This document shows, piece by piece, positions 4,478 through 50,903 of a stretch of DNA of 64,000 bases. Each line of letters opens with the position of its first letter. Position 1 is the stretch's first letter. A program made the translations under genes and the position numbers. The notes beneath the pieces were generated by a model that ran no database searches, was not told the origin of the DNA, and worked only from the letters and a program-made list of their open reading frames with translations. The DNA is from an uncultured Alphaproteobacteria bacterium. Lineage in GTDB: Bacteria; Pseudomonadota; Alphaproteobacteria; CAAHEQ01; UBA3637. The stretch covers positions 32,016-96,015 of the forward strand of contig CASEYR010000006.1 of assembly GCA_949292205.1 (NCBI GenBank), given 5' to 3'.

Positions 4478-5842
4478 ATGAAAACAACACCGAGGACTCT
4501 GTCCGGCTTTATGGAGCTTTTGCCGGCAGAACAGTTGGTCTTTAATCAGATACTTGATGTTATTCGCGATTCGTTCGAATCGTATGGCTTCGTCCCATTG
4601 GATACTCCCGTCCTGGAGTATGCCGATGTTTTGTTGGCTAAGGCCGGTGGTGAAACCGAAAAGCAAATCTATCGCTTTCAAAAGGGTGATTCCGATTTGT
4701 GTATGCGCTTTGATTTGACGGTGCCTTTGTCGCGCTATGTCGCTCAACATCAAAACGATATTACTTTCCCGTTTCGGCGCTATCAAATCGCAAAGTCTTA
4801 TCGAGGAGAGAGACCTCAGAAAGGACGCTTCCGTGAGTTTTATCAGGCTGATATTGACATCATCGGCAATGAACGGCTATCAATTATTCACGATGCCGAA
4901 GTTCCCGCTATCATGTATGGTATATTACGGCGCTTGGGACTGAATCGTTTCCGAATCAAAATGAATAACCGAAAATTGTTAAACGGATTTTATCAGCCCT
5001 TAGGACTGACCAAAAAGGCTACCGATATCTTACGCATTATTGACAAGTTTGATAAAATCGGAGTTGATGCCGTTCAGGATTGCTTGGTGGATTTGAGCCT
5101 GTCCGATGATCAAATACAATCAGTATTGTCTTTTGTTCAAACATCGGGAACGACGGATCAGGTATTATCTTATTTAAAGGGCCTGAACATCCAAAACGAA
5201 TCGTTTCAAACCGCTATTTCTGAATTGGAAACGGTTGCAAATGCATTAAAAACGCTGGGTGTTCCCGAAACGCACTATCAAATTGATTTAAAAATTACAC
5301 GCGGTCTGGATTATTATACCGGAACGGTTTATGAAACGTATGTTGAGGGTCATCCCAATTGGGGTGCTATTTGCTCTGGCGGACGCTACGATAATTTGGC
5401 CGAAAATTACACCGATCGTAAAATGCCGGGGATTGGTATGAGCTTGGGTGTGACACGCTTCTTTGATCTATTGAGAGGTGAAGGACTTTTGAATTTTGGT
5501 AAAATGACTTCTGCCGAAGTTCTGGTGTTGCCGATGGATGAGGATATGTCCTATGCTTGTCAAGTTGCAACCGTATTGCGACAAGGGGGTATTAAAACGG
5601 AGTTATACGGGGCAACGACTAAATTTAAAAATAAAATGAACTACGCCAATAAAATCGGCGTTCCTTTCGTTGCCATTATCGGAGAAGATGAGCGACAAAA
5701 TAATCTTGTTTCTTTGAAGGATATGGTTTCCGGAAATCAAACAAGTATTCCACTGTCCGATGTGGTCAAGTTTGTTTTTCAAAAACGATCCGAACAGCCG
5801 GAGCAACCGATTATTTTGGAAGTATCTCGTACTTCTAAATAG
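4478..5842 (+). CDS. hisS: histidine--tRNA ligase (class II, type-2 HisRS)
   Basis: 454 aa; class II motif 2 region FRRYQIAKSYRGERPQKGRFREFYQADIDIIG; C-terminal anticodon-binding domain present, so not HisZ; SD AAAGGA upstream. Confidence 0.78.
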   Translation: MKTTPRTLSGFMELLPAEQLVFNQILDVIRDSFESYGFVPLDTPVLEYADVLLAKAGGETEKQIYRFQKGDSDLCMRFDLTVPLSRYVAQHQNDITFPFRRYQIAKSYRGERPQKGRFREFYQADIDIIGNERLSIIHDAEVPAIMYGILRRLGLNRFRIKMNNRKLLNGFYQPLGLTKKATDILRIIDKFDKIGVDAVQDCLVDLSLSDDQIQSVLSFVQTSGTTDQVLSYLKGLNIQNESFQTAISELETVANALKTLGVPETHYQIDLKITRGLDYYTGTVYETYVEGHPNWGAICSGGRYDNLAENYTDRKMPGIGMSLGVTRFFDLLRGEGLLNFGKMTSAEVLVLPMDEDMSYACQVATVLRQGGIKTELYGATTKFKNKMNYANKIGVPFVAIIGEDERQNNLVSLKDMVSGNQTSIPLSDVVKFVFQKRSEQPEQPIILEVSRTSK

Positions 5843-5854
5843 TCGGATGGTGAA

Positions 5855-5896
5855 TCAAAAAAATCCCTTTATCGTATAGGATAAAGGGATTTTTTG
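5855..5896. terminator. bidirectional rho-independent terminator between convergent hisS and the antiporter gene
   Basis: ATCCCTTTATC-gtatag-GATAAAGGGAT stem-loop flanked by an A-run on one side and a T-run on the other. Confidence 0.6.
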
Positions 5897-5908
5897 CTAC
5901 AGATGCCG

Positions 5909-7372
5909 TTAGATGTGGATGAGTCCGCGTGCAAAAGCGTAAATGGCAATTAAGGCAACGGCCACAATTGCAACGGCTAAAGCTTTTTCCGGTTCGGAAA
6001 ATAACGGCTCTTTAGAGGGGGTATCTTGTCTTGCCCAAATATAAAACGGGATACCTATTGCGATAAAGATAGCGGCCATCAGTAAGTAGCTGAAGCCGGC
6101 TGCATACAGCAACCAAATCGCATAAACCGTTCCTAATATTCCGGTTGTTAACGCTGTAAAGCGACTGACGCCGGTTGTTTTGGGTAATTCATTATCCTCG
6201 CATAATTTCCACAAAAATAAGCAGGACATCAGATAGGCCGGTAAGACCATAACTCCGGTAATCGATAACATGGTGTTCCACGCATTATTCGCAAAATAAA
6301 CCAAAATCATAGCCGCTTGCATTAAACCACTGGTAATCCAAAGAGATATATTGGGCGAGCCTGCTTTATTTTCGTATCCGAAAATTTTTGGAAATGTCCC
6401 ATTCTTGGCCATTGCATAGGGCATCTCTGCAACAATCATTGTCCAGGATAGCCAGCTGGCTAAAATGGCAATAACAACGCCGATGTTCATCAACCAAGAG
6501 CCCCAGGGACCAACAACAAGCTCTAAAACACCTGCTGTTGACGGATTGGCTACCGCTGCCATTTGAACACGTGTCATAAATCCAAAGGGCAATACAGATA
6601 GCAAAACATAAATGGCTAAACACCCTAAATAACCAATTAAAGTGGCTCGCCCAACATAGGATTGTTTTTCGGCGCGTCCCGATAAAACAACGGCTCCTTC
6701 AATACCAATGAACGCCCACAGTGTAACCAGCATCGTGTTTTTAACTTGGCTTCCTAAATCTCCTAATTTGTCGGTCGACAGCTTACCCCAGAAATCAAAA
6801 TCAAATTTATCCATATTGAAAACGGCTGTCATAATGATGATAAAGAGGAGTAGAGGAACGATTTTTGCAATTGTGACCACGAGGTTTATCATGGTCGCTT
6901 GCTTAACGCCTCTTAACACTAAGAAGTTAAAAAACCAAATTAAAAATGATCCGCCGATGACGGAATATAGATTGTTTCCTCCGGTAAAAACGCCGGGGAA
7001 GAAATAGTCCAGAGCATCCATTGTGATGACTGCGTAGCCGACGTTTCCGAAAATTTGACACAGCCAATAACTCCAACCGATATTAAATCCCATGTAGGGT
7101 CCGAATCCCGAACGTGCATACATATAAATACCCGATGTTAAATCGGGGCGTGCATCTGATAAAATCCGAAATGTGTTTGCTATAAAATACATCCCAAAGC
7201 CCGTTACTAACCAAGCTAGGATGACGGCTCCGACCGCTGCACTTTGTGCCATGTTTTGCGGAAGTGAAAAAATACCGCCACCGATCATGGAACTGACGAC
7301 GATACCGGCTAAACCGAAAATGCCTAATTTACCCGCAGGGCTCATTCCTTGTTGCTTATTTTTTTGAACCAT
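5909..7372 (-). CDS. APC-family basic amino acid antiporter (arginine:agmatine or arginine:ornithine exchanger, AaxC/ArcD/AdiC-like)
   Basis: 487 aa, about 12 TM segments; N-terminal GLAGIVVSSMIGGGIFSLPQNMA... closely resembles ArcD/AdiC-type exchangers; lies immediately downstream of the pyruvoyl ArgDC gene on the same strand. Confidence 0.72.
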   Translation of the reverse strand: MVQKNKQQGMSPAGKLGIFGLAGIVVSSMIGGGIFSLPQNMAQSAAVGAVILAWLVTGFGMYFIANTFRILSDARPDLTSGIYMYARSGFGPYMGFNIGWSYWLCQIFGNVGYAVITMDALDYFFPGVFTGGNNLYSVIGGSFLIWFFNFLVLRGVKQATMINLVVTIAKIVPLLLFIIIMTAVFNMDKFDFDFWGKLSTDKLGDLGSQVKNTMLVTLWAFIGIEGAVVLSGRAEKQSYVGRATLIGYLGCLAIYVLLSVLPFGFMTRVQMAAVANPSTAGVLELVVGPWGSWLMNIGVVIAILASWLSWTMIVAEMPYAMAKNGTFPKIFGYENKAGSPNISLWITSGLMQAAMILVYFANNAWNTMLSITGVMVLPAYLMSCLFLWKLCEDNELPKTTGVSRFTALTTGILGTVYAIWLLYAAGFSYLLMAAIFIAIGIPFYIWARQDTPSKEPLFSEPEKALAVAIVAVALIAIYAFARGLIHI

Positions 7373-7443
7373 TTTATCCTCCTTTTGACAAAGGGGCGGT
7401 TCTTGACTGTTACGCCTTGAACCGCCCGATTATCAATTGAACT

Positions 7444-8028
7444 TTACTTTTTCAACTCGACGGCCGGTGCGTTTTCAAAATTCAGAAATCCTAATGCCGT
7501 TAAAGAATATCCAAATGCTTGCTCTATATTGACAAAGTTATGGAAAAATTGAAAATCACTATGTTGTTCCATACCGCGAAGCTCTAACTCATGCTTCAAT
7601 GATTTTGTTAACCACATCTCGGCATGTGCTTTCGCAATGTCGTCATCAATAAACGTGTCAAAGTATTCAACATATTCGGCTGCCCAACCGCCGACAAATT
7701 GATCGTCTTTTTTACCCCAGACAATCCCGACACCTGTTGCAATTGCTTTGTGATCTTCACGACGGGCTCCGTTTCCGGCAATAATGACCTCTAATACGGC
7801 TCCGTGCTTAAATGTGTGGGCAACTTGATCAACGGGTACAATGTTTCCAAATAGTTCCGGCGGTAATACCGATGTGTATGGAACGACATTGAAGTCTTGA
7901 ATCTTGGCGGCGGTTAATGCCGAATCATAACAAAATGTTTCAAACGGTTGCGGCGGAATGCCGTCTTCTGCTTGACCGGCTCCGCCGGTGTGAAAAGCAA
8001 GTGTTGGATATCTTGTTCCATATGCCAT
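7444..8028 (-). CDS. pdaD: pyruvoyl-dependent arginine decarboxylase (PvlArgDC family; AaxB/PdaD-like)
   Basis: 194 aa; [12 protein letters not shown] aligns with the self-cleavage region N-x-I-R-I-S|S-I-M-P-P-E of archaeal PdaD and chlamydial AaxB (Ser gives the pyruvoyl group); AAGGAG SD. Confidence 0.72.
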
Positions 8029-8058
8029 TTTTTTTCTCCTTATGTCTTATTAATTGCT

Positions 8059-8070
8059 TGATTGCAATCA
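8059..8070. promoter_or_regulatory. 12-bp perfect palindrome TGATTGCAATCA abutting a TATAAT on the pdaD side of the divergent intergenic region
   Basis: Exact palindrome seen in sequence; candidate operator; the binding factor is unknown. Confidence 0.3.
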
Positions 8071-8182
8071 TTATAAAAAATAGGTTTTTTTATAATTCCT
8101 CGTCAACCTGACCAAAAGTCGGATGGACAGCCATTTTTTTAATCCCATATGACTTTTGTAACTTTTTACAAAGGAGAAAAAT

Positions 8183-8524
8183 ATGAAAAAACTGTTAATC
8201 GCCGGCGTCGCCGCTCTTGTTTTGGTCGGAACTGCTTCTGCTCGTGCAGAAACAATTCAGGGGAAAGTTTTATCAACTAAAGGAAATATGGTTACCATTC
8301 AACAAAAAGATGGTACGATCAAGTCTTTGACGATGACCGATAATACGACTTATCGTAAAAAGAAAATGATGAAAAAAAATAAAATGAAACATGGCCACTT
8401 GAAAGAAAAAGGGAAAACATATTATGAACCAATGATGGAGGAAGATGATTGGATTGAAATCGTTTATACTCCGACTTCCGATACTGAAATGGTCGCCGAA
8501 GATGTAACTGTCTATGATGATTAA
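8183..8524 (+). CDS. small secreted Lys-rich/acidic hypothetical protein
   Basis: AGGAGA SD; Sec signal MKKLLIAGVAALVLVGTASARA; KKKMMKKNKMKHGHLKEKGK tract followed by an acidic tail. Confidence 0.5.
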   Translation: MKKLLIAGVAALVLVGTASARAETIQGKVLSTKGNMVTIQQKDGTIKSLTMTDNTTYRKKKMMKKNKMKHGHLKEKGKTYYEPMMEEDDWIEIVYTPTSDTEMVAEDVTVYDD

Positions 8525-8546
8525 AGATGTTATCACTTTTTATTTG

Positions 8547-8572
8547 AGGCTTCCGTTCGGAAGCCTTTTTTA
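8547..8572 (+). terminator. rho-independent terminator
   Basis: AGGCTTC-cgttcg-GAAGCCT followed by TTTTTT. Confidence 0.55.
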
Positions 8573-8663
8573 TGTCGCTTGAACGGGAGTTGTGTGTAAA
8601 AAAAAGATGACTTCTTGATTTGGGCATGCTATAATGTCGCCAAATAAGAAAAGGCTTTTCATG

Positions 8664-9761
8664 AATTTGATTTTATTTCGCTATATTTTAAAGCAGTTTG
8701 CTCTGATCTTTTTCGCAACCCTCTTTATCTTGACGGCTGTTATTATGCTGTTCGATGTTATTGAACTGCTGCGAGAGGCTTCAAAACATGAAGGCGTCGC
8801 TTTCTTTGATGTCGGGGTTTTGGCTCTGCTGAAATCTCCTCAGATGATTCATATCATCTTGCCTTTTGTTACCTTAATTGCCGGTCTTGTCTTTCTGTTT
8901 AAATTTAGTCGATCCTCGGAGTTAATCGTTATGCGCGCCGTGGGGCTTTCCGTCTGGAACTTTATCCTGCCCTTGATTATGTTTATCACGATTGTCGGCG
9001 TTTTTGATGTGACCGTTTTTAATCCGATTGCCGCTTTGACAGCTAAACGATTCGAACGTTTGGAAGAACGTTTGGGTATGACGCGTTCAACCCCGTTTTC
9101 CTGGTCCGAAGAGGGGTTCTGGTTGCGGGATATTCGCCCGAAAGAAGTCTTGGTTATCAGAGCGTCCCGCGTGCGTCAGGATAAACAAGATGTTTTGTTG
9201 GATAATGTGTCCGTTTTTGAACTGGATAATCAGGATAACTTTAAACGTCAGAGTGAGGCTGAATTGGGGACTCTTCAGGGCGGAATGCTGACCTTGAATA
9301 ATGCTTTCGTCATCGATTCAGAGTCCGAAACCGGACGAACCGTCGGGCGGTTGTTATTTAATACCGGTCTTAACCTAGATCGTATCTTGGAAAAATTTGA
9401 TGAACCTCAGACTATGTCCTTCTGGAGATTTCCTTATTTTATCCGCTTTTTAAAAGAGTCCGGTTTCGCTTCACAGGCTCATGAAATGTATTGGCATGAA
9501 CTTATCGCTTTTCCGGCAACTCTGGTGGCGATGATTCTAATCAGTACCGTGTTCGCTCTGCCGCCGACAAGTCGGCAGGGAAAGGTCTTGCTACGTGTCT
9601 TGTTGGCTATTCTGTCCGGCTTTACACTCTACTTCTTATCTCGCGTGACCAATGTCTTGGGGCAGTCCGGAAGTTTGCCGATGTTTCTGGCCGCTTGGGG
9701 CCCCGCTTTAATCGTTATCCCCTTGTGTTTGTCCGCTTTATTACATTTGGAGGATGGTTAA
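8664..9761 (+). CDS. LptF/LptG-family LPS export permease (YjgP/YjgQ)
   Basis: MNLILFRYILKQF... six-TM permease with periplasmic beta-jellyroll insert; start chosen at the Met preceded by AAGAAAAGG rather than ORF-track 8634. Confidence 0.72.
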   Translation, partial: NLILFRYILKQFALIFFATLFILTAVIMLFDVIELLREASKHEGVAFFDVGVLALLKSPQMIHIILPFVTLIAGLVFLFKFSRSSELIVMRAVGLSVWNFILPLIMFITIVGVFDVTVFNPIAALTAKRFERLEERLGMTRSTPFSWSEEGFWLRDIRPKEVLVIRASRVRQDKQDVLLDNVSVFELDNQDNFKRQSEAELGTLQGGMLTLNNAFVIDSESETGRTVGRLLFNTGLNLDRILEKFDEPQTMSFWRFPYFIRFLKESGFASQAHEMYWHELIAFPATLVAMILISTVFALPPTSRQGKVLLRVLLAILSGFTLYFLSRVTNVLGQSGSLPMFLAAWGPALIVIPLCLSALLHLEDG

Positions 9762-11743: not shown

Positions 11744-11834
11744 TGGCGGATGGGGCGAGATTCGAACTCGCGTTAGGCTTTAGACCTAAACACACTTTCC
11801 AGGCGTGCGCCTTCAACCACTCGGCCACCCATCC
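11744..11834 (-). tRNA. tRNA-Ser (anticodon GGA)
   Basis: Reverse complement folds as a class II tRNA: acceptor GGATGGG/CCCATCC, long variable arm, T-loop GTTCGAATC, anticodon loop CUGGAAA, encoded CCA. Confidence 0.9.
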
Positions 11835-42522: not shown

Positions 42523-45500
42523 ATGATCAAACAAGAAACGAATCGCAGAAGAGTTCGTAAAAATTTCGGAAAAATTGAAGCTGTTGCCCAAATGCCCAAC
42601 CTGATAGGGGTTCAGACGGATTCCTATAAGGAGTTTTTGCAATGGGGCGTTCCTGTTTCAAAACGTCAGGATACCGGACTTCAGGCTGTTTTTAAATCTA
42701 TCTTTCCGATTCACGATTTTGCCGGACGCGGCGATTTAGAGTTCGTTAAATATGAACTGGATGAACCAAAGTTTGATGTTGATGAATGCTTAAAGCGGAG
42801 CTTGACTTTTGCGGCTCCCGTTCGGGCTACTCTGCGTTTGGTCGTTTGGGATGTTGACGCCGCAACAGGTGTTCGGTCAATCCGCGATATTAAAGAACAA
42901 GACGTTTATATGGGTGATTTGCCCTTGATGACGGAAAAAGGGACTTTTATTGTCAACGGAACTGAACGGGTTGTTGTTTCTCAAATGCATCGTTCCCCCG
43001 GTGTATTCTTTGATCATGACAACGGTGAAACACATTCTTCGGGGAAATTCTTATTCGCTGCACGTATTATCCCCTATCGCGGGTCTTGGATTGACTTTGA
43101 ATTCGATGCTAAAGACTTAATCCATGTCCGTATCGACCGTCGTCGGAAATTGCCGGTATCTTCTTTCTTGTATGCTTTGGATAGCGATTATACCGCTCAG
43201 AAAAGAAAAGAAGCTGCTGAAGCCGGAACCGAAATTAATCCGGCCGATGTCTATGGCATGAGCAAAGAAGAAATTTTAAACTATTTCTATCAGACCGTTG
43301 TCTTCAAAAAAGACAAAAAAGGTTGGAAAACCGCTTTTGAGCCCGCTTTGTTGAAGGGCCAAAAATTGTCATTTGATTTGGTTGATGCCAAAACCGGTCA
43401 AGTTGTTTTTGAAAAAGGTCAAAAATTGATCTCTGCCAAAGCAAATAAGCTGAAAAAAGATGGTCTGGAAGAGTATTTAGTTCCGGAAGAAGAGTTGAAT
43501 GGTCGCTTTGTTGCTACGGATATCATTGATGAAAAAACGGGTGAAGTCGTTTTGGAAGCCGGTGATGAATTGACCGAAGATGATTTTGCTAAATTGCACG
43601 AATTGAAGATGAAGGAATTGCCGATTTTGCATATTGACTATGTAACGGTTGGTCCTTATATCCGGAACACATTGGTTGCCGATAAAAATACAACGCGTGA
43701 AGAAGCTTTAATCGATATCTACAAAATCATGCGTCCGGGTGAATTGCCGGTTGTTGAAACCGCTGATGTCTTGTTCCGTAGCATGTTCTTTGATTTGGAA
43801 CGCTATGATTTATCCGCTGTCGGTCGTGTGAAAATGAACGCTCGCTTGGGCTTTGACAACGAAGCTGTCCCAGATACCGTTCGTGTCTTGCGTAAGGAAG
43901 ATATTTTAAAAATCCTGAAGACTTTGGTCGAAATTAAAGATGGACACGGTGAAATTGATGATATTGATAACTTGGGTAACCGTCGTGTTCGTTCGGTTGG
44001 TGAGTTGATGGAAAATCAATATCGCTTGGGCTTGTTGAGAATGGAACGAATGATTCGTGAAAGAATGACGTCCAGCGAGATTGATTCGGTTATGCCCTAT
44101 GATTTAATCAATGCTAAACCGTTATCGGCTGCAGTCCGTGAGTTCTTTGCCGCCAGCCAGTTGAGCCAGTTTATGGATCAAAATAACCCCTTGTCCGAAA
44201 TTACGCATAAACGCCGTTTGTCAGCTTTGGGGCCGGGCGGTTTGACTCGGGATCGGGCCGGTATGGAAGTTCGCGACGTTCATCCGACTCACTATGGCCG
44301 AATTTGTCCGATTGAGTCTCCGGAAGGTCAGAACATCGGTTTGATTAACTCGCTGGCTTCTTATGCACGTATTAACAAATACGGCTTTATCGAAACACCG
44401 TATCGGAAAGTTGTAAACGGTAAGGTAACGGACGAAGTCGTCTATTTGTCCGCTATGGAAGAAGCGCGCTATAATATTGCTCAGGCAAACGCAAAACTGA
44501 ACGATAAAGGCGAATTTACGGAAGAGTTAGTTACTTCTCGTCATGCCGGAGAAGTCGTCTTGGTTAAACCTGAAGAAGTGGATATGATCGATGTTTCTCC
44601 GAAACAGGTCGTGTCTGTTGCCGCTGCTTTGATTCCGTTCTTGGAAAACGATGACGCTAACCGTGCTTTGATGGGTTCTAACATGCAACGTCAGGGCGTT
44701 CCTTTGTTGAAAGTTCAGGCTCCGTTGGTCGGAACCGGAATGGAGGCTGTCGTAGCTAAAGATTCAAAAGCTGCTATTACCGCAAAACGGTCAGGTATCG
44801 TTCAACAAGTCGATTCTTCTCGTATCGTTATTCGGGCAACTGATGAATTAAGCTCAACCGCTTCGGGTGTTGATATCTATACTTTGGAAAAATTCCAACG
44901 CTCGAACCAAGGTACTTGTATGACGCAACAACCGATCGTTAAAGCCGGTGAGTTTGTCTCAAAGGGCGATATCATCGCTGATGGTCCATGTACTCAATTG
45001 GGTGAATTGGCTTTGGGTCGGAATGTCTTGGTCGCTTTCGTTCCTTGGAACGGATATAACTATGAAGACTCTGTCTTGATCTCAGAACGAATTGCTCGTG
45101 ATGATGTCTTTACCTCGATTCACTTGGAAGAGTTTGAAGTGACGGCTCGCGATACAAAGCTGGGTCAAGAAGAAATTACGCGCGATATCCCGAATGTCGG
45201 TGAAGAAGGCTTGAAAAACTTGGATGAAACCGGTGTCATTTACATTGGTGCCGAAGTTAAAGCCGGTGATATTTTGGTCGGTAAGGTGACTCCGAAAGGC
45301 GAAACAATCATGACACCGGAAGAAAAACTGTTGCGGACAATCTTCGGTGAGAAGGCTGCCGATGTACGCGATTCTTCTTTGCGGGTTCCTCCGGGAGTTT
45401 CCGGAACTGTCGTTGATGTGCGTGTCTTTACGCGGCGTGGTCTGGAAAAAGACGAACGGGCTCTGTCTATTGAACAAGCTGAAATCAGTCGTTTGGCAAA

Positions 45501-46704
45501 AGATAGAGATGATGAAAAGGCAATTTTGCAAGGCAGCTTCTACGATCGTATTCGTGGCTTGTTGGCCGGTCAGAAAGTTTCTAAGGCAGAGGGCTTTAAA
45601 GCCGGTACGGTTTTGACGGCTGATGCTTTGGCTGCGGTTAAGAACTATAACTTGCGTAAAATCAATGTGGCCGATGATAAAATTATGAGCGAGATTGAAC
45701 AGTTGCTAACAACTTTGGATCAAGCCGAGGCTGCTTTACAGGCTAAGTTCGAAAATCGTGTTGAAAAATTGCAACGCGGTGATGAAATGATGGCCGGTGA
45801 GTTGAAGAAAATTAAGGTCTTTATCGCAACAAAACGTAAGTTGCAACCGGGTGATAAAATGTCCGGTCGTCACGGAAACAAAGGTGTGGTCTCTCGGGTA
45901 TTGCCGATTGAGGATATGCCTTATACCGAGGACGGAACGCCGATGGATATCGTTTTGAACCCCTTGGGTGTGCCGTCTCGTATGAATGTCGGTCAGATCT
46001 TGGAAACGCACCTAGGCTATGCTTGCCGTGAGCTGGGTCGTCAAATCGGTGCTATCGTTGATCAGGTTAAGGCTCAGAAGGTCGGTATGGACGATTTGAA
46101 AGCCAAATTAAAAGAAGTCTATGGTGATCGTGAATACAATAACAAAATCGCCGATATGGATGATTCCGAATTGTTGGCGATGAGTGAAAACCTGAAAGAT
46201 GGTGTTCCTATCGCAACACCTGTCTTTGATGGGGCTCATCAAGACGATATCAACAATATGTTGAAAATGGCTGGCTTGAATACTTCCGGTCAAGTAACAT
46301 TATACGACGGATTGACGGGTGAACCCTTTGATCGCCCGGTGACAATCGGATATATGTATATGCTGAAATTGCACCACTTGGTTGATGAAAAGATTCACGC
46401 TCGCTCCATCGGACCTTACAGCTTGGTTACACAACAACCGTTGGGCGGTAAGGCTCAGTTCGGTGGTCAGCGCTTCGGTGAAATGGAAGTGTGGGCTTTG
46501 GAGGCTTATGGTGCCGCTTATACGTTGCAGGAAATGTTGACGATTAAATCAGATGACGTTTCCGGTCGTATTAAAGCCTATGAAACCATTATTCGTGGTG
46601 ACAATAACTTTGAAGCCGGTATTCCGGAATCGTTCAACGTGTTGGTCAAGGAAATGCGTTCCTTGGGATTGGATGTTGAATTGAACCAGAACGAAAGCAA
46701 ATAA
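42523..46704 (+). CDS. rpoB: DNA-directed RNA polymerase subunit beta
   Basis: 1393 aa, collinear with E. coli RpoB over many blocks, e.g. [13 protein letters not shown] and [12 protein letters not shown]. Confidence 0.95.
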
Positions 46705-46760
46705 TATCACGGGGAGGGTTTATCCCCTCCCTTTAACCCAAACAAGAGGTAGAAAAAAAG

Positions 46761-49700
46761 ATGAATGAATTGATTACAAACTTTGGTCAAGTAGCAAACC
46801 CGCAGTCTTTTGATGATATTCGGATTTCCATTGCTTCTCCGGAAAAAATCCGTAGCTGGTCGTTCGGTGAAGTGACTCGTCCAGAAACAATTAACTATCG
46901 GACTTTTAAGCCGGAAAAAGACGGTTTGTTCTGTGCTAAAATTTTCGGACCGGTTAAGGATTATGAATGTTTGTGCGGTAAGTACAAACGAATGAAATAC
47001 CGTGGTATTACTTGTGAAAAGTGCGGTGTTGAAGTGACTCTGTCCAAGGTTCGTCGCGAACGTATGGGACATATTGAGTTGGCTTGCCCTGTCACACATA
47101 TCTGGTTCTTGAAGTCTCTGCCGAGCCGTATCGGGACTCTGCTGGATATGATGTTGAAAAATCTGGAAGCCGTCTTGTACTTTGAAAAATATATCGTGAT
47201 TGAACCCGGCTTGACCAGTTTAAAGTTACATGACTTATTGACGGAAGAGCAATATCAACAGGCTTTGGAAGAATATGGTGAAGATGCTTTCCGCGTCGGA
47301 ATCGGTGCCGAAGCCATTAAAGAAATGTTAAGCCAGATTGACTTGTCTGCCGAAGCAGCAAGTTTGCGCGCTGAACTGATTGAAACAAAATCCGATATGA
47401 AACGCAAGAAAATCGTCAAGAAATTAAAATTGGTCGAAGCGTTTTTGGAGTCCGGTTCTCGTCCGGAATGGATGGTTTTAGATGTATTGCCGGTTATTCC
47501 GCCGGAATTACGTCCGTTGGTTCCGTTGGATGGTGGTCGTTTCGCTACCTCTGATTTGAATGATCTCTATCGGCGTGTTATTAACAGAAACAATCGTTTG
47601 AAACGGCTGTTAGAGCTACGTGCTCCGGAAATCATTATTCGAAATGAAAAACGGATGTTGCAGGAAGCTGTTGATGCTCTGTTTGATAACGGTCGTCGCG
47701 GTCGTGCCGTCGCTGGTGTCAATAAGAGACCTTTGAAGTCTTTGGCTGATATGTTAAAGGGTAAACAAGGTCGTTTCCGTCAGAACTTGTTAGGTAAGCG
47801 TGTTGACTATTCGGGTCGTTCCGTTATTACGGTTGGTCCGGAATTGTTGTTACACCAATGCGGTTTGCCAAAGCGGATGGCTCTGGAATTGTTCAAGCCC
47901 TTTATTTACGCTAAATTAGAGCAATACGGTATGGCTTCGACAATTAAGGCCGCTAAAAAGATGGTTGAAAAAGAACGTCCGGAGGTTTGGGATATTTTGT
48001 CAGAAGTTATCCGCGAACATCCTGTTTTGTTAAACCGTGCTCCGACATTGCACCGCTTGGGTATTCAGGCGTTTGAACCGGTCTTGATTGAAGGTAAGGC
48101 TATTCAGTTGCACCCGTTGGTTTGTACGGCATTTAACGCAGACTTTGACGGTGATCAGATGGCTGTTCACGTTCCTTTGTCATTGGAAGCTCAGTTGGAA
48201 GCTCGTGTCTTGATGATGTCTACCAACAACATTTTGTCTCCGGCTTCCGGTAAGCCGATTATCGTACCGACGCAGGACGTTATTTTGGGCTTGTACTATA
48301 TGTCTATGGCTTTGGACGGTGAACCGGGCGAAGGAATGGTTTTCTCTTGCCCTCAAGAAATTGAACATGCTTTGTTCAATCATGTGGTCACGTTACATTC
48401 CAAAATTAAAGTTCGTTTGACGATTATGGAAGATAACGGACAAAAGAATACGCGTGTCGTTGAAACAACGCCGGGACGAATGAAATTAGCTGCTTTGTTG
48501 CCGGATAACAGTAAGATTCCGTTCAGCTTGATGAACCGCTTGATCCGTAAAAAAGAGGTATCCGATATTATTGATGCGGTTTATCGCTATTGCGGTCAGA
48601 AAGAAACGTGTATCTTTGCCGATCGTATTATGGGATTGGGATATCGTCAAGCGGCCAAGTCTGGTATTTCTTTCGGTAAGGATGACTTGATCGTTCCGGA
48701 AGCAAAGAAAAAACTGTTGGCTGAAACAGAGAAAAAGACAAATGAATTCGAACGTCAATATCAAGACGGTTTGATTACGCGTTTGGAAAAATACAACAAA
48801 GTCGTTGATGCTTGGGCCGCTTGTACAGATGCTATTGCCGACGCGATGATGAAGGGTATTTCTAAAATCGAGCCGGGCAAACCTGTGAACTCGGTCTACA
48901 TGATGGCAAACTCCGGAGCTCGTGGTAGTGCGGCTCAGATGCGTCAGTTGGCCGGTATGCGTGGTTTGATGGCTAAACCGTCAGGTGAAATTATTGAAAC
49001 GCCTATTCGTTCTAACTTTAAAGAAGGGTTGACCGTTATGGAGTACTTTAACTCGACTCACGGTGCTCGTAAAGGTTTGGCGGATACAGCTTTGAAAACA
49101 GCGAACTCAGGTTACTTGACACGCCGTTTGGTAGATGTGGCTCAAGACGCTATCATCACGATGGAAGATTGTGGAACCGATAACGGTATTACAATTCAAC
49201 CGATTATTGAAGGCGGTGATGTTATCGCAACAACCGGTGAACGAATTCTGGGTCGGACGGCTGCCGAGGATATTAAAGATCCGTCAACGGGTGAAGTCAT
49301 CGTTCCGAAGAACAAGTTGATTGACGAAAACGACGTTGAGAAAATTGATGCTGCCGGCGTTGATTCCGTTAAGATTCGTTCTGTTTTGACTTGTGAAGCT
49401 GAAGACGGTATTTGTGCGGCTTGCTATGGACGTGATTTGGCTCGCGGAACGGCGGTTAACTTGGGCGAAGTTGTCGGTATTATCGCGGCTCAGTCCATTG
49501 GTGAACCGGGGACTCAGTTGACCATGCGGACCTTCCACATCGGTGGTGCGGCTCAACGGGGTGCTGAACAATCCAGTATTGATGCCGCTTTTGATGCTAA
49601 AATCAAATTGGGGAACTGTAATACAATCAAAAATTCAGCCGGTGATACAATTGTGTTATCTCGTAATTGTGAGGTTTCTTTGTTGGATGCCAATAATCGC

Positions 49701-50903
49701 GAGAAGGCTCGTCATAAGGTGCCTTATGGTGGAAAATTGTTGGTTGAAGATGGGCAGTCTGTAACTAAAGGCGCTCGCTTGGCTGAATGGGATCCGTATA
49801 CAACTCCGATTATTGTTGATAAGGCCGGAAAGGTTAAATTTGAAGATTTAATCGATGGTGAAACTATTCGTGAAGTCATTGATGAAGCTACCGGGTTGGC
49901 TTCAACCGTGGTTATGGATTGGCGTCAACAATCCGGTAAGCATGAACGGAAACCGCATATTGCTTTGTTGAACGAAAAAGGTAAAATCTTTAAGTCGGCC
50001 AGCGGAGCAGAGGCTCGCTATTACTTGGCTGCTGATGCCGTCGTAACCGTTAAAAACGGACAGGAAGTTATGCCGGGTGATGTCTTGGCAAGATTGCCTC
50101 GTGAATCAACAAAAACAAGAGATATTACGGGTGGTTTGCCTCGGGTTGCCGAATTGTTTGAAGCGCGTCATCCAAAAGATGCTGCTATCATTTCCGAAAT
50201 TGACGGACGGGTTGAGTTCGGGGCTGATTTCAAGACTAAACGGCGTGTCTTTGTTATCGGTGAAAACGAAGAAGATAAACGTGAGTACATTATCCCGAAA
50301 GGTCGTTCCGTTGCCGTTCATGAAGGCGATATCGTTCAAAAGGGCGATTTGATTGTTGAAGGTGCTTTGGTGCCTCATGATATTTTGCGCATTTTGGGTG
50401 TGGAGGCTTTGGCTCACTACATGATTAAGGAAGTTCAAGCCGTCTATCGCTTGCAGGGTGTGCGTATCAATGATAAACACATCGAAGTTATCGTTCGTCA
50501 AATGATGCGTAAAATGGAAGTTGTTGATCCGGGTGATACAACTCTGTTGGCCGGTGAGCAAGTGGATAAAGAGACTTTGGTCGCCGAAAATGTTAAGGCT
50601 TTGAAAGCCGGCGGACGTGAAGCTAAGGCTGAACCGGTCTTGTTGGGTATTACAAAAGCCAGCTTGCAAACAAACTCGTTCATTTCTGCTGCATCGTTCC
50701 AAGAAACGACTCGTGTCTTGACCGAAGCTGCTGTCGCCGGAAAACGAGATACTCTGCACGGCTTGAAAGAAAACGTCATCGTTGGTCGCTTGATTCCTGC
50801 CGGAACGGGGGCTCAAATGCAACGACTCCGCCAGATTGCGGCAGAACGGGACAAAGAGTTCTTGGATGCTCGCAATAAAGAAACAGGAAATGCTGTCGGC
50901 TAA
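46761..50903 (+). CDS. rpoC: DNA-directed RNA polymerase subunit beta'
   Basis: 1380 aa; zinc-binding [23 protein letters not shown] and catalytic NADFDGD. Confidence 0.95.

Follow-up and report, generated by a model that had tools for sequence, protein, structure and literature searches.

Archaeal pyruvoyl-dependent arginine decarboxylases (PvlArgDC; M. jannaschii MJ0316, PDB entries 1mt1, 1n13 and 1n2m) serve polyamine biosynthesis and, to our knowledge, are not paired with an antiporter. In E. coli, the AR3 system combines AdiA, a pyridoxal phosphate-dependent arginine decarboxylase, with AdiC, an arginine:agmatine antiporter of the APC superfamily. In Chlamydia, the aaxABC cluster codes for the porin AaxA, the pyruvoyl-type decarboxylase AaxB (CPn1032/CT373) and the antiporter AaxC (CPn1031/CT374), which mediates arginine uptake (PMC2720952). 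Self-cleavage of C. pneumoniae AaxB at Ser53, a role for Glu109 and inactivation by G115R, the Gly replacement that blocks cleavage in C. trachomatis D, have been reported, and the Chlamydia enzyme works best at a pH of about 3.4, with a Km of about 5 mM (PMC2720952). We analysed a 64-kb stretch of DNA from an uncultured alphaproteobacterium (contig CASEYR010000006.1), referred to below as the window, whose positions serve as coordinates, with strands as stated. It carries a pair of genes that belong to the same two families as chlamydial aaxB and aaxC, in the same order and on the same strand.

The pair consists of two open reading frames (ORFs), whose coordinates we confirmed, the second beginning 71 nt past the stop codon of the first:

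7444-8028, minus strand: aaxB, predicted pyruvoyl-dependent arginine decarboxylase proenzyme, 194 aa (PF01862, identity to C. felis AaxB, invariant residues, dN/dS)
5909-7372, minus strand: aaxC, predicted APC-superfamily basic amino acid/polyamine antiporter, 487 aa (TIGR00905, identity to C. felis AaxC, AdiC residues, adjacency)

We conclude, with a probability of about 0.82, that aaxB and aaxC form an operon here, the two genes being orthologues of the inner pair of Chlamydia aaxABC, and that this operon would work as an arginine:agmatine exchange and decarboxylation module in the manner of Chlamydia AaxBC and, by analogy, of E. coli AdiA/AdiC. The operon is laid out as promoter, leader hairpin, aaxB, intercistronic hairpin, aaxC and terminator. 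A first-pass annotation of the same DNA had proposed an AaxB-AaxC-like module, made of a decarboxylase ORF with a PvlArgDC self-cleavage region and an adjacent same-strand APC exchanger, and had read it as an arginine- and proton-consuming system. Family models and comparison with C. felis proteins bear out the module and both of its parts, and the functional proposal remains the best reading, given the orthology, the invariant catalytic residues and the matching NCBIfam profiles. The reference sequences were genuine C. felis CF0286 (P0271) and a C. felis genomic locus carrying aaxA, aaxB and aaxC (L082).

The AaxB product matches PF01862 over residues 8-146 with 82 bits (gathering cutoff of the Pfam model, 22.7) and is 69% identical to C. 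felis AaxB over its full length. Its cleavage region reads FNVVPYT52/S53VLPPE, where the slash marks the bond to be broken; C. felis AaxB has the same PYT/SVLP site, which corresponds to the Ser53 site reported for C. pneumoniae AaxB, and self-cleavage is predicted to yield a beta chain of 52 aa and an alpha chain of 142 aa that bears the pyruvoyl group at its N-terminus. S53, the residue on which the first-pass annotation had made its identification depend, is invariant in an alignment of 18 diverse homologues reaching down to 27% identity, as are N47 and E118; G113 and G114 are conserved, and the glycine equivalent to the C. trachomatis D site is present. A search of the PDB with the decarboxylase as a single sequence found nothing, and the link to the archaeal enzyme was found by profile search only: the profile of the 18-homologue alignment retrieved M. 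jannaschii PvlArgDC 1n2m (E = 1.9e-6, that is, about 2e-6), with Asn47, residue 53 (Ser53) and Glu109 aligned to N47, S53 and E118 of the window protein. Despite this shared Pfam family, the window enzyme does not reach the archaeal equivalog models (TIGR00286, 23.7 bits against a threshold of 106.95; NF009064, 31.4 against 207). Note that C. felis AaxB likewise falls below both, with 32.8 and 30.7 bits; because the reference AaxB fails them too, these models delimit the archaeal type and not the AaxB type. Both genes of the window are under strong purifying selection (pN 0.03-0.12, pS 0.67-0.84), with a dN/dS of about 0.02 for aaxB.

Among distant PvlArgDC homologues (P0131, P0133, P0137, P0138, P0155 and P0135/P0139/P0144), some have signal-peptide-like N-termini and some are fused into proteins of 390-480 aa, which suggests secreted or multidomain variants of the family.

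The AaxC product matches TIGR00905 with 570.7 bits (cutoff 409), close to the 590 bits of C. felis AaxC, to which it is 60% identical (76% positives) over 484 aa, that is, over its full length. The solved structure closest to it is that of AdiC (E = 1e-33), and the gating and substrate residues Y93, N101, W202, E208 and W293 of AdiC are kept as Y102, N110, W219, E225 and W310. We therefore predict that the transporter is an arginine:agmatine exchanger. By contrast with AdiC itself, it lies on the TIGR00905/ArcD-like branch. For both window proteins, the profile of NCBIfam scores is nearly equal to that of the C. felis reference.

The pairing is conserved well beyond the window. A scan of one genome per GTDB species with an 8-sequence AaxB alignment detected an AaxB-type gene in at least 517 species-representative bacterial genomes, which corrects the view of AaxB-type pyruvoyl arginine decarboxylases as confined to Chlamydia and archaea; the first-pass statement that such enzymes are otherwise mainly archaeal is not supported. 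Protein searches also revealed members in Victivallaceae and Cetobacterium that are about 75% identical to Chlamydia AaxB. Counts of loci given here and below refer to the closest 80 (77-94% AaxB identity), which come mostly from metagenome-assembled genomes (MAGs) titled Alphaproteobacteria, with three titled Elusimicrobia and three Opitutales/Opitutia; many related MAG titles name human-cohort, rumen, abomasum, caecum or colon samples. In 79 of these 80 loci aaxB is followed directly by aaxC, with both genes on one strand; the sole exception ends at a contig edge. The pairing, which the earlier reading of the DNA had taken to be unusual for an alphaproteobacterium, is therefore typical of this alphaproteobacterial lineage. 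The hosts differ in lifestyle: that of the window is a free-living or commensal gut alphaproteobacterium, whereas Chlamydia is an obligate intracellular pathogen. NCBI already names some members of the lineage "pyruvoyl-dependent arginine decarboxylase"; a literature search on RF32, Alphaproteobacteria and agmatine found nothing.

Several observations weigh against our interpretation. The window transporter does not reach the equivalog models of arginine transporters (ArcD, TIGR03810, 519 bits against a cutoff of 591; AdiC, NF007929, 154 against 574), and the window lacks the AaxA porin, by which the Chlamydia system is stimulated. Moreover, aaxC-annotated antiporters also adjoin histidine decarboxylases in other gut bacteria (PMC8465708), so that the AaxC transporter clade is not strictly arginine-specific.

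The pair could accordingly handle another substrate, for instance by histidine/histamine or arginine/ornithine exchange, in which case the AaxBC label would be nominal only. Indeed, besides its 519 bits on the ArcD model, the window transporter scores 461 bits on the histidine-histamine antiporter equivalog NF040512, and it shares its subfamily and a gut habitat with the aaxC-like antiporters that stand beside pyruvoyl histidine decarboxylases in some gut bacteria, in clusters that in some Bacteroides contain aaxB too (PMC8465708). However, both scores are under the curated cutoffs (725 for NF040512), and C. felis AaxC gives nearly equal values (ArcD, 507 bits; histidine-histamine, 437; AdiC, 155). 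Unlike the gut histidine decarboxylase clusters, the window has neither hdcA nor hdcB: the enzyme next to the transporter is of the PvlArgDC type, not of the pyruvoyl HdcA family, with the 69% identity to C. felis AaxB given above, and the pair is flanked by neither hdcA nor arc genes. We consider such a different substrate very improbable and retain arginine:agmatine exchange as the predicted activity.

As for the porin, a tblastn search with C. felis AaxA gave a best E-value of 2.7 over the 64 kb, so that the first-pass remark that no AaxA-like porin gene is adjacent holds for the whole window, and the complete AaxABC set, with an OprB-family AaxA gene beside aaxBC, is not found within it. 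AaxA-like OprB porins, 31-39% identical to C. felis AaxA, are encoded near aaxBC in 27 of the 80 loci. In the Elusimicrobia-type loci L042, L054, L066 and L067 (at about 4680-8120), the porin gene is immediately upstream, which reproduces the chlamydial order aaxA-aaxB-aaxC and bears on the origin of the Chlamydiaceae cluster. AaxA-like porins also occur in L065, L069, L070, L076, L077 and L079 (at about 8340-9460).

The first-pass annotation had suggested that the pair might have been acquired horizontally and had proposed comparisons of base composition, codon usage and phylogeny, none of which lends support to a recent transfer. A recent acquisition in this genome would fit the occurrence of the pair at 77-80% (AaxB) and 60-66% (AaxC) identity in Elusimicrobia and Opitutales MAGs, the variation of the flanking genes between species-level relatives, and the transfer by which Chlamydiaceae are thought to have gained aaxABC. 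However, the GC content of the pair (0.43-0.44) and its GC content at third codon positions (0.38 and 0.44) are inside the range of the window. The correlation of relative synonymous codon usage is low (r = 0.51), but all other minority-strand genes give r = 0.43-0.67; because the deviation is common to every minority-strand gene, it reflects replication-strand bias, and atypical codon usage was rejected as a sign of transfer. In a neighbour-joining tree of concatenated AaxB and AaxC, the sequences of Chlamydia, Opitutales and Elusimicrobia group in clades of their own, with the Alphaproteobacteria-titled sequences outside these; the window pair nests with L003 and L007 deep among the latter, outside the clades of the other phyla, and C. 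felis is roughly equidistant from all compared sequences. Synonymous sites are saturated even against the closest relatives. The gene order at the locus is hisS-aaxC-aaxB-orf113-lptG, with hisS (plus strand) convergent with aaxC (minus strand), and it is unchanged in assemblies that carry an identical orf113; no integrase or transposase gene lies between hisS and lptG, and the only nearby tRNA gene, for tRNA-Ser at 11744-11834, is about 3.2 kb past orf113. From GC content, codon usage, tree position and constant flanks, recent acquisition is therefore not supported, and we judge it very unlikely; an ancient transfer between phyla is plausible.

Three contigs binned as Holdemanella, Desulfovibrionaceae and Lactobacillales (L023, L026 and L034) carry aaxBC with 84-86% AaxB identity to the window, the same range as Alphaproteobacteria-titled loci, and two of them have orf113 or AaxA neighbours; they are probably metagenomic binning errors rather than transfers.

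The elements through which the operon would be expressed are as follows:

8077-8106, minus strand: predicted aaxBC promoter, -35 TTGACG at 8106-8101 and -10 TATTTT at 8082-8077 (promoter scan and related loci)
8051-8070, minus strand: leader stem-loop UGAUUGC-AAUCAA-GCAAUUA, at or next to the predicted transcript start (fold and covariation)
8036-8041, minus strand: aaxB ribosome-binding site AAGGAG, 7 nt before the ATG (read from the sequence)
7385-7436, minus strand: intercistronic stem-loop, core 9-bp GC-rich stem GGGCGGUUC/GAACCGCCC at 7394-7427 (folding and related gaps)
7378-7384, minus strand: aaxC ribosome-binding site AAGGAGG
5856-5896, both strands: bidirectional intrinsic terminator common to aaxC (minus) and the convergent hisS (plus), perfect stem AAAAAAUCCCUUUAUC...GAUAAAGGGAUUUUUU (folding)

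Upstream of aaxB, the first-pass annotation had singled out a 12-bp perfect palindrome abutting a TATAAT. Both are present where it had placed them (TGATTGCAATCA at 8059-8070; TATAAT read on the minus strand at 8075-8070), but the two together are not supported as the regulatory core: what relatives conserve is a stem of 5-7 bp, closed by a 6-nt loop and overlapping the palindrome, and a -10 element upstream of the TATAAT. Indeed, TTGACG-N17-CTATnT recurs upstream of aaxB in related loci, the alternatives for the window being TTGACG, a spacer of 17-18 nt and (C)TATTT(T) from 8083/8082 to 8077, while the TATAAT has no acceptable -35 element, is downstream of the conserved -10 and is itself not conserved; it is probably not the -10. 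The palindrome was also rejected as statistically special, since the window contains 14 perfect palindromes of 12 bp where its base composition predicts 17. Related loci keep AAGGAG or GGAG at the position of the aaxB ribosome-binding site.

The leader stem-loop, whose 5' arm and most of whose loop make up the palindrome, directly follows the -10 element and folds with -7.5 kcal/mol (z = -2.85). Its motif GC-AAU-NNN-GC is found in 25 related loci and the window, flanked by arms with compensatory changes: the covariation score is 0.343, compared with 0.211 +/- 0.031 in shuffles (0 of 500 reach it) and at most 0.147 in slid registers, and the pair types include AU/GU/GC and UA/UG/CG/GC. The same inverted repeat, at 8051-8070, could instead be a DNA operator for a dimeric repressor overlapping the transcription start. 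It coincides with the predicted +1, its symmetry is kept across relatives, and a separate conserved upstream block (see below) suggests protein-mediated regulation of the region. By contrast, the arms vary freely (GTTGC, GGTGC, TAGC, CTGC, ATTGC) while the pairing stays, and many of the pairs are G-U wobbles, with which RNA pairing survives but DNA symmetry is lost. At the leader position, loci further removed carry hairpins unrelated to this one (mean z of -1.28; z below -2 in 20 of 78), and no regulator gene is conserved beside the aaxBC module; unlike E. coli AR3, the window locus has no AdiY-like regulator. Because of the many G-U pairs in the stem, an RNA hairpin is favoured, and we regard the operator as unlikely. 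The RNA hairpin may act as a 5'-terminal stabilising or regulatory stem-loop. An Rfam scan of 5700-8700 returned sub-threshold chance matches only and no known RNA family.

The intercistronic stem-loop folds strongly (-29.6 kcal/mol, z = -6.07; none of 200 shuffles reaches this stability). Among the related loci (L002-L079), 69 of 72 distinct aaxB-aaxC gaps likewise contain a strong hairpin, unrelated in sequence and often with a U-run behind it (mean z = -4.0), whereas in C. felis the gap is only 9 nt long, against 71 nt in the window, and the hairpin is absent. The hairpin ends just before the aaxC ribosome-binding site, which is no more than about 10 nt away, so that expression of aaxC requires readthrough of the hairpin. 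Its likeliest role would be that of a leaky terminator or of a 3'-end or mRNA stabiliser setting the AaxB:AaxC ratio, with more AaxB than AaxC. At the other end of aaxC, the terminator is stable on both strands (-22.6 kcal/mol, z = -5.5 on the minus strand; -24.3 kcal/mol, z = -4.6 on the plus strand), with U-runs on both.

Also unlike the Chlamydia cluster, the window has, besides the leader hairpin, a divergent gene for a periplasmic OB-fold protein, separated from aaxB by a conserved block:

8183-8524, plus strand: orf113, small secreted protein, divergent from aaxB (signal peptide, OB-fold core)
8107-8120, minus strand: conserved block GACTTTTGGTCAGG, flanked by the -35 elements of the divergently oriented promoters of aaxB and orf113 (18-region alignment)

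Besides a signal peptide and an OB-fold core, the orf113 product shows a conserved TTYRKKK motif, a loop rich in Lys and an acidic C-terminus. No Pfam family matches it, and only 24 clusters of this protein were found in 5.8 billion proteins. The gene is divergently upstream of aaxB in 33 of the 80 loci, where the other flanking genes are not conserved; it is a lineage-specific accessory of the aax module, and its product may be a periplasmic stress or ligand-binding partner. As a substitute for AaxA it was rejected: 11 loci carry both. A terminator-like hairpin (GAGGCTTCCGTTCGGAAGCCTT followed by TTTTAT, plus strand, 8546-8567) comes after orf113, indicating that this gene is monocistronic and not part of one unit with lptG. 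When 18 divergent intergenic regions were aligned, the CT of the block proved invariant, as did the TTG of the -35 element next to it, and ACTTTTGG is largely conserved, unlike the sequence on either side. The block is a candidate binding site for a shared regulator, or a candidate UP-like element; no gene for a regulator is evident nearby.

Away from the module, the cumulative GC skew of the window reaches its maximum at about 51 kb, directly after two very long plus-strand ORFs (42523-50903), and gene orientation and the third-position A/T and G/C bias flip at the same place, which resembles a strand switch of the replication-terminus type or else a junction in the assembly.

Taken together, these features suggest the following course. 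Transcription would start at about 8070 from TTGACG-N18-TATTTT, giving an mRNA that opens with the short stem-loop and continues through the aaxB coding region into the strong intercistronic hairpin, which would probably lower or stabilise downstream expression; the aaxC coding region would follow, with the transcript ending at the bidirectional terminator. The AaxB proenzyme would cleave itself at T52/S53 to form the pyruvoyl group on the alpha chain. AaxC would bring L-arginine in and take agmatine out, and AaxB, presumably with an acidic pH optimum like its Chlamydia counterpart, would decarboxylate the arginine, consuming one cytoplasmic proton per turnover. The net effect would be de-acidification of the cytoplasm and an outward movement of positive charge, hence acid resistance and/or a gain in proton-motive force in a gut bacterium. 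A wider scenario, which we put forward as speculative and hold to be improbable, is that the aax module of gut Alphaproteobacteria forms a lineage-specific co-regulated unit, in which orf113 would be driven from a shared central operator at 8107-8120 and the leader hairpin and terminator-like intercistronic hairpin would form a conditional (for example acid- or arginine-responsive) attenuator tuning AaxB:AaxC; separately, and just as tentatively, the gut-bacterial aaxBC/aaxABC pool, including the Elusimicrobia clusters in Chlamydia order, might be the long-sought source of Chlamydiaceae aaxABC.

The candidate physiological roles of the module are acid resistance, energy conservation and agmatine supply. 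Electrogenic exchange of precursor and product is a general property of decarboxylase-antiporter pairs, and the same machine could serve a purpose other than protection against extreme acid, such as proton-motive force or alkalinisation during fermentative growth, or agmatine for polyamine synthesis or cross-feeding. The pair is indeed under strong purifying selection in many gut MAGs, not just in those from acidic compartments, and several possible roles were listed by the authors of the Chlamydia work (PMC2720952). However, the pH optimum and the millimolar Km of the characterised AaxB are better suited to acid stress than to biosynthesis, the close linkage with an exporter gene in one operon speaks against retention of agmatine for polyamine synthesis, and no agmatine-utilisation gene was noticed beside the pair, although none was searched for systematically. 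We see such another purpose as rather unlikely.

The locus is a known kind of system, common in this lineage; its identification is correct and well supported, and it reveals no new kind of system. The novelty is confined to secondary features: two conserved hairpins (intercistronic and leader), the OB-fold partner, the upstream block shared by both promoters, and how broad the aax pool of gut bacteria is when set against Chlamydia. The promoter, the two hairpins and the upstream block are concrete cis-elements that, along with an unstudied periplasmic partner, are now available for experiments. A predicted function is firmly assigned to a gene pair that is widespread in poorly known, uncultured Alphaproteobacteria of the gut and rumen, and it suggests that members of this group tolerate acid with the help of arginine and release agmatine.

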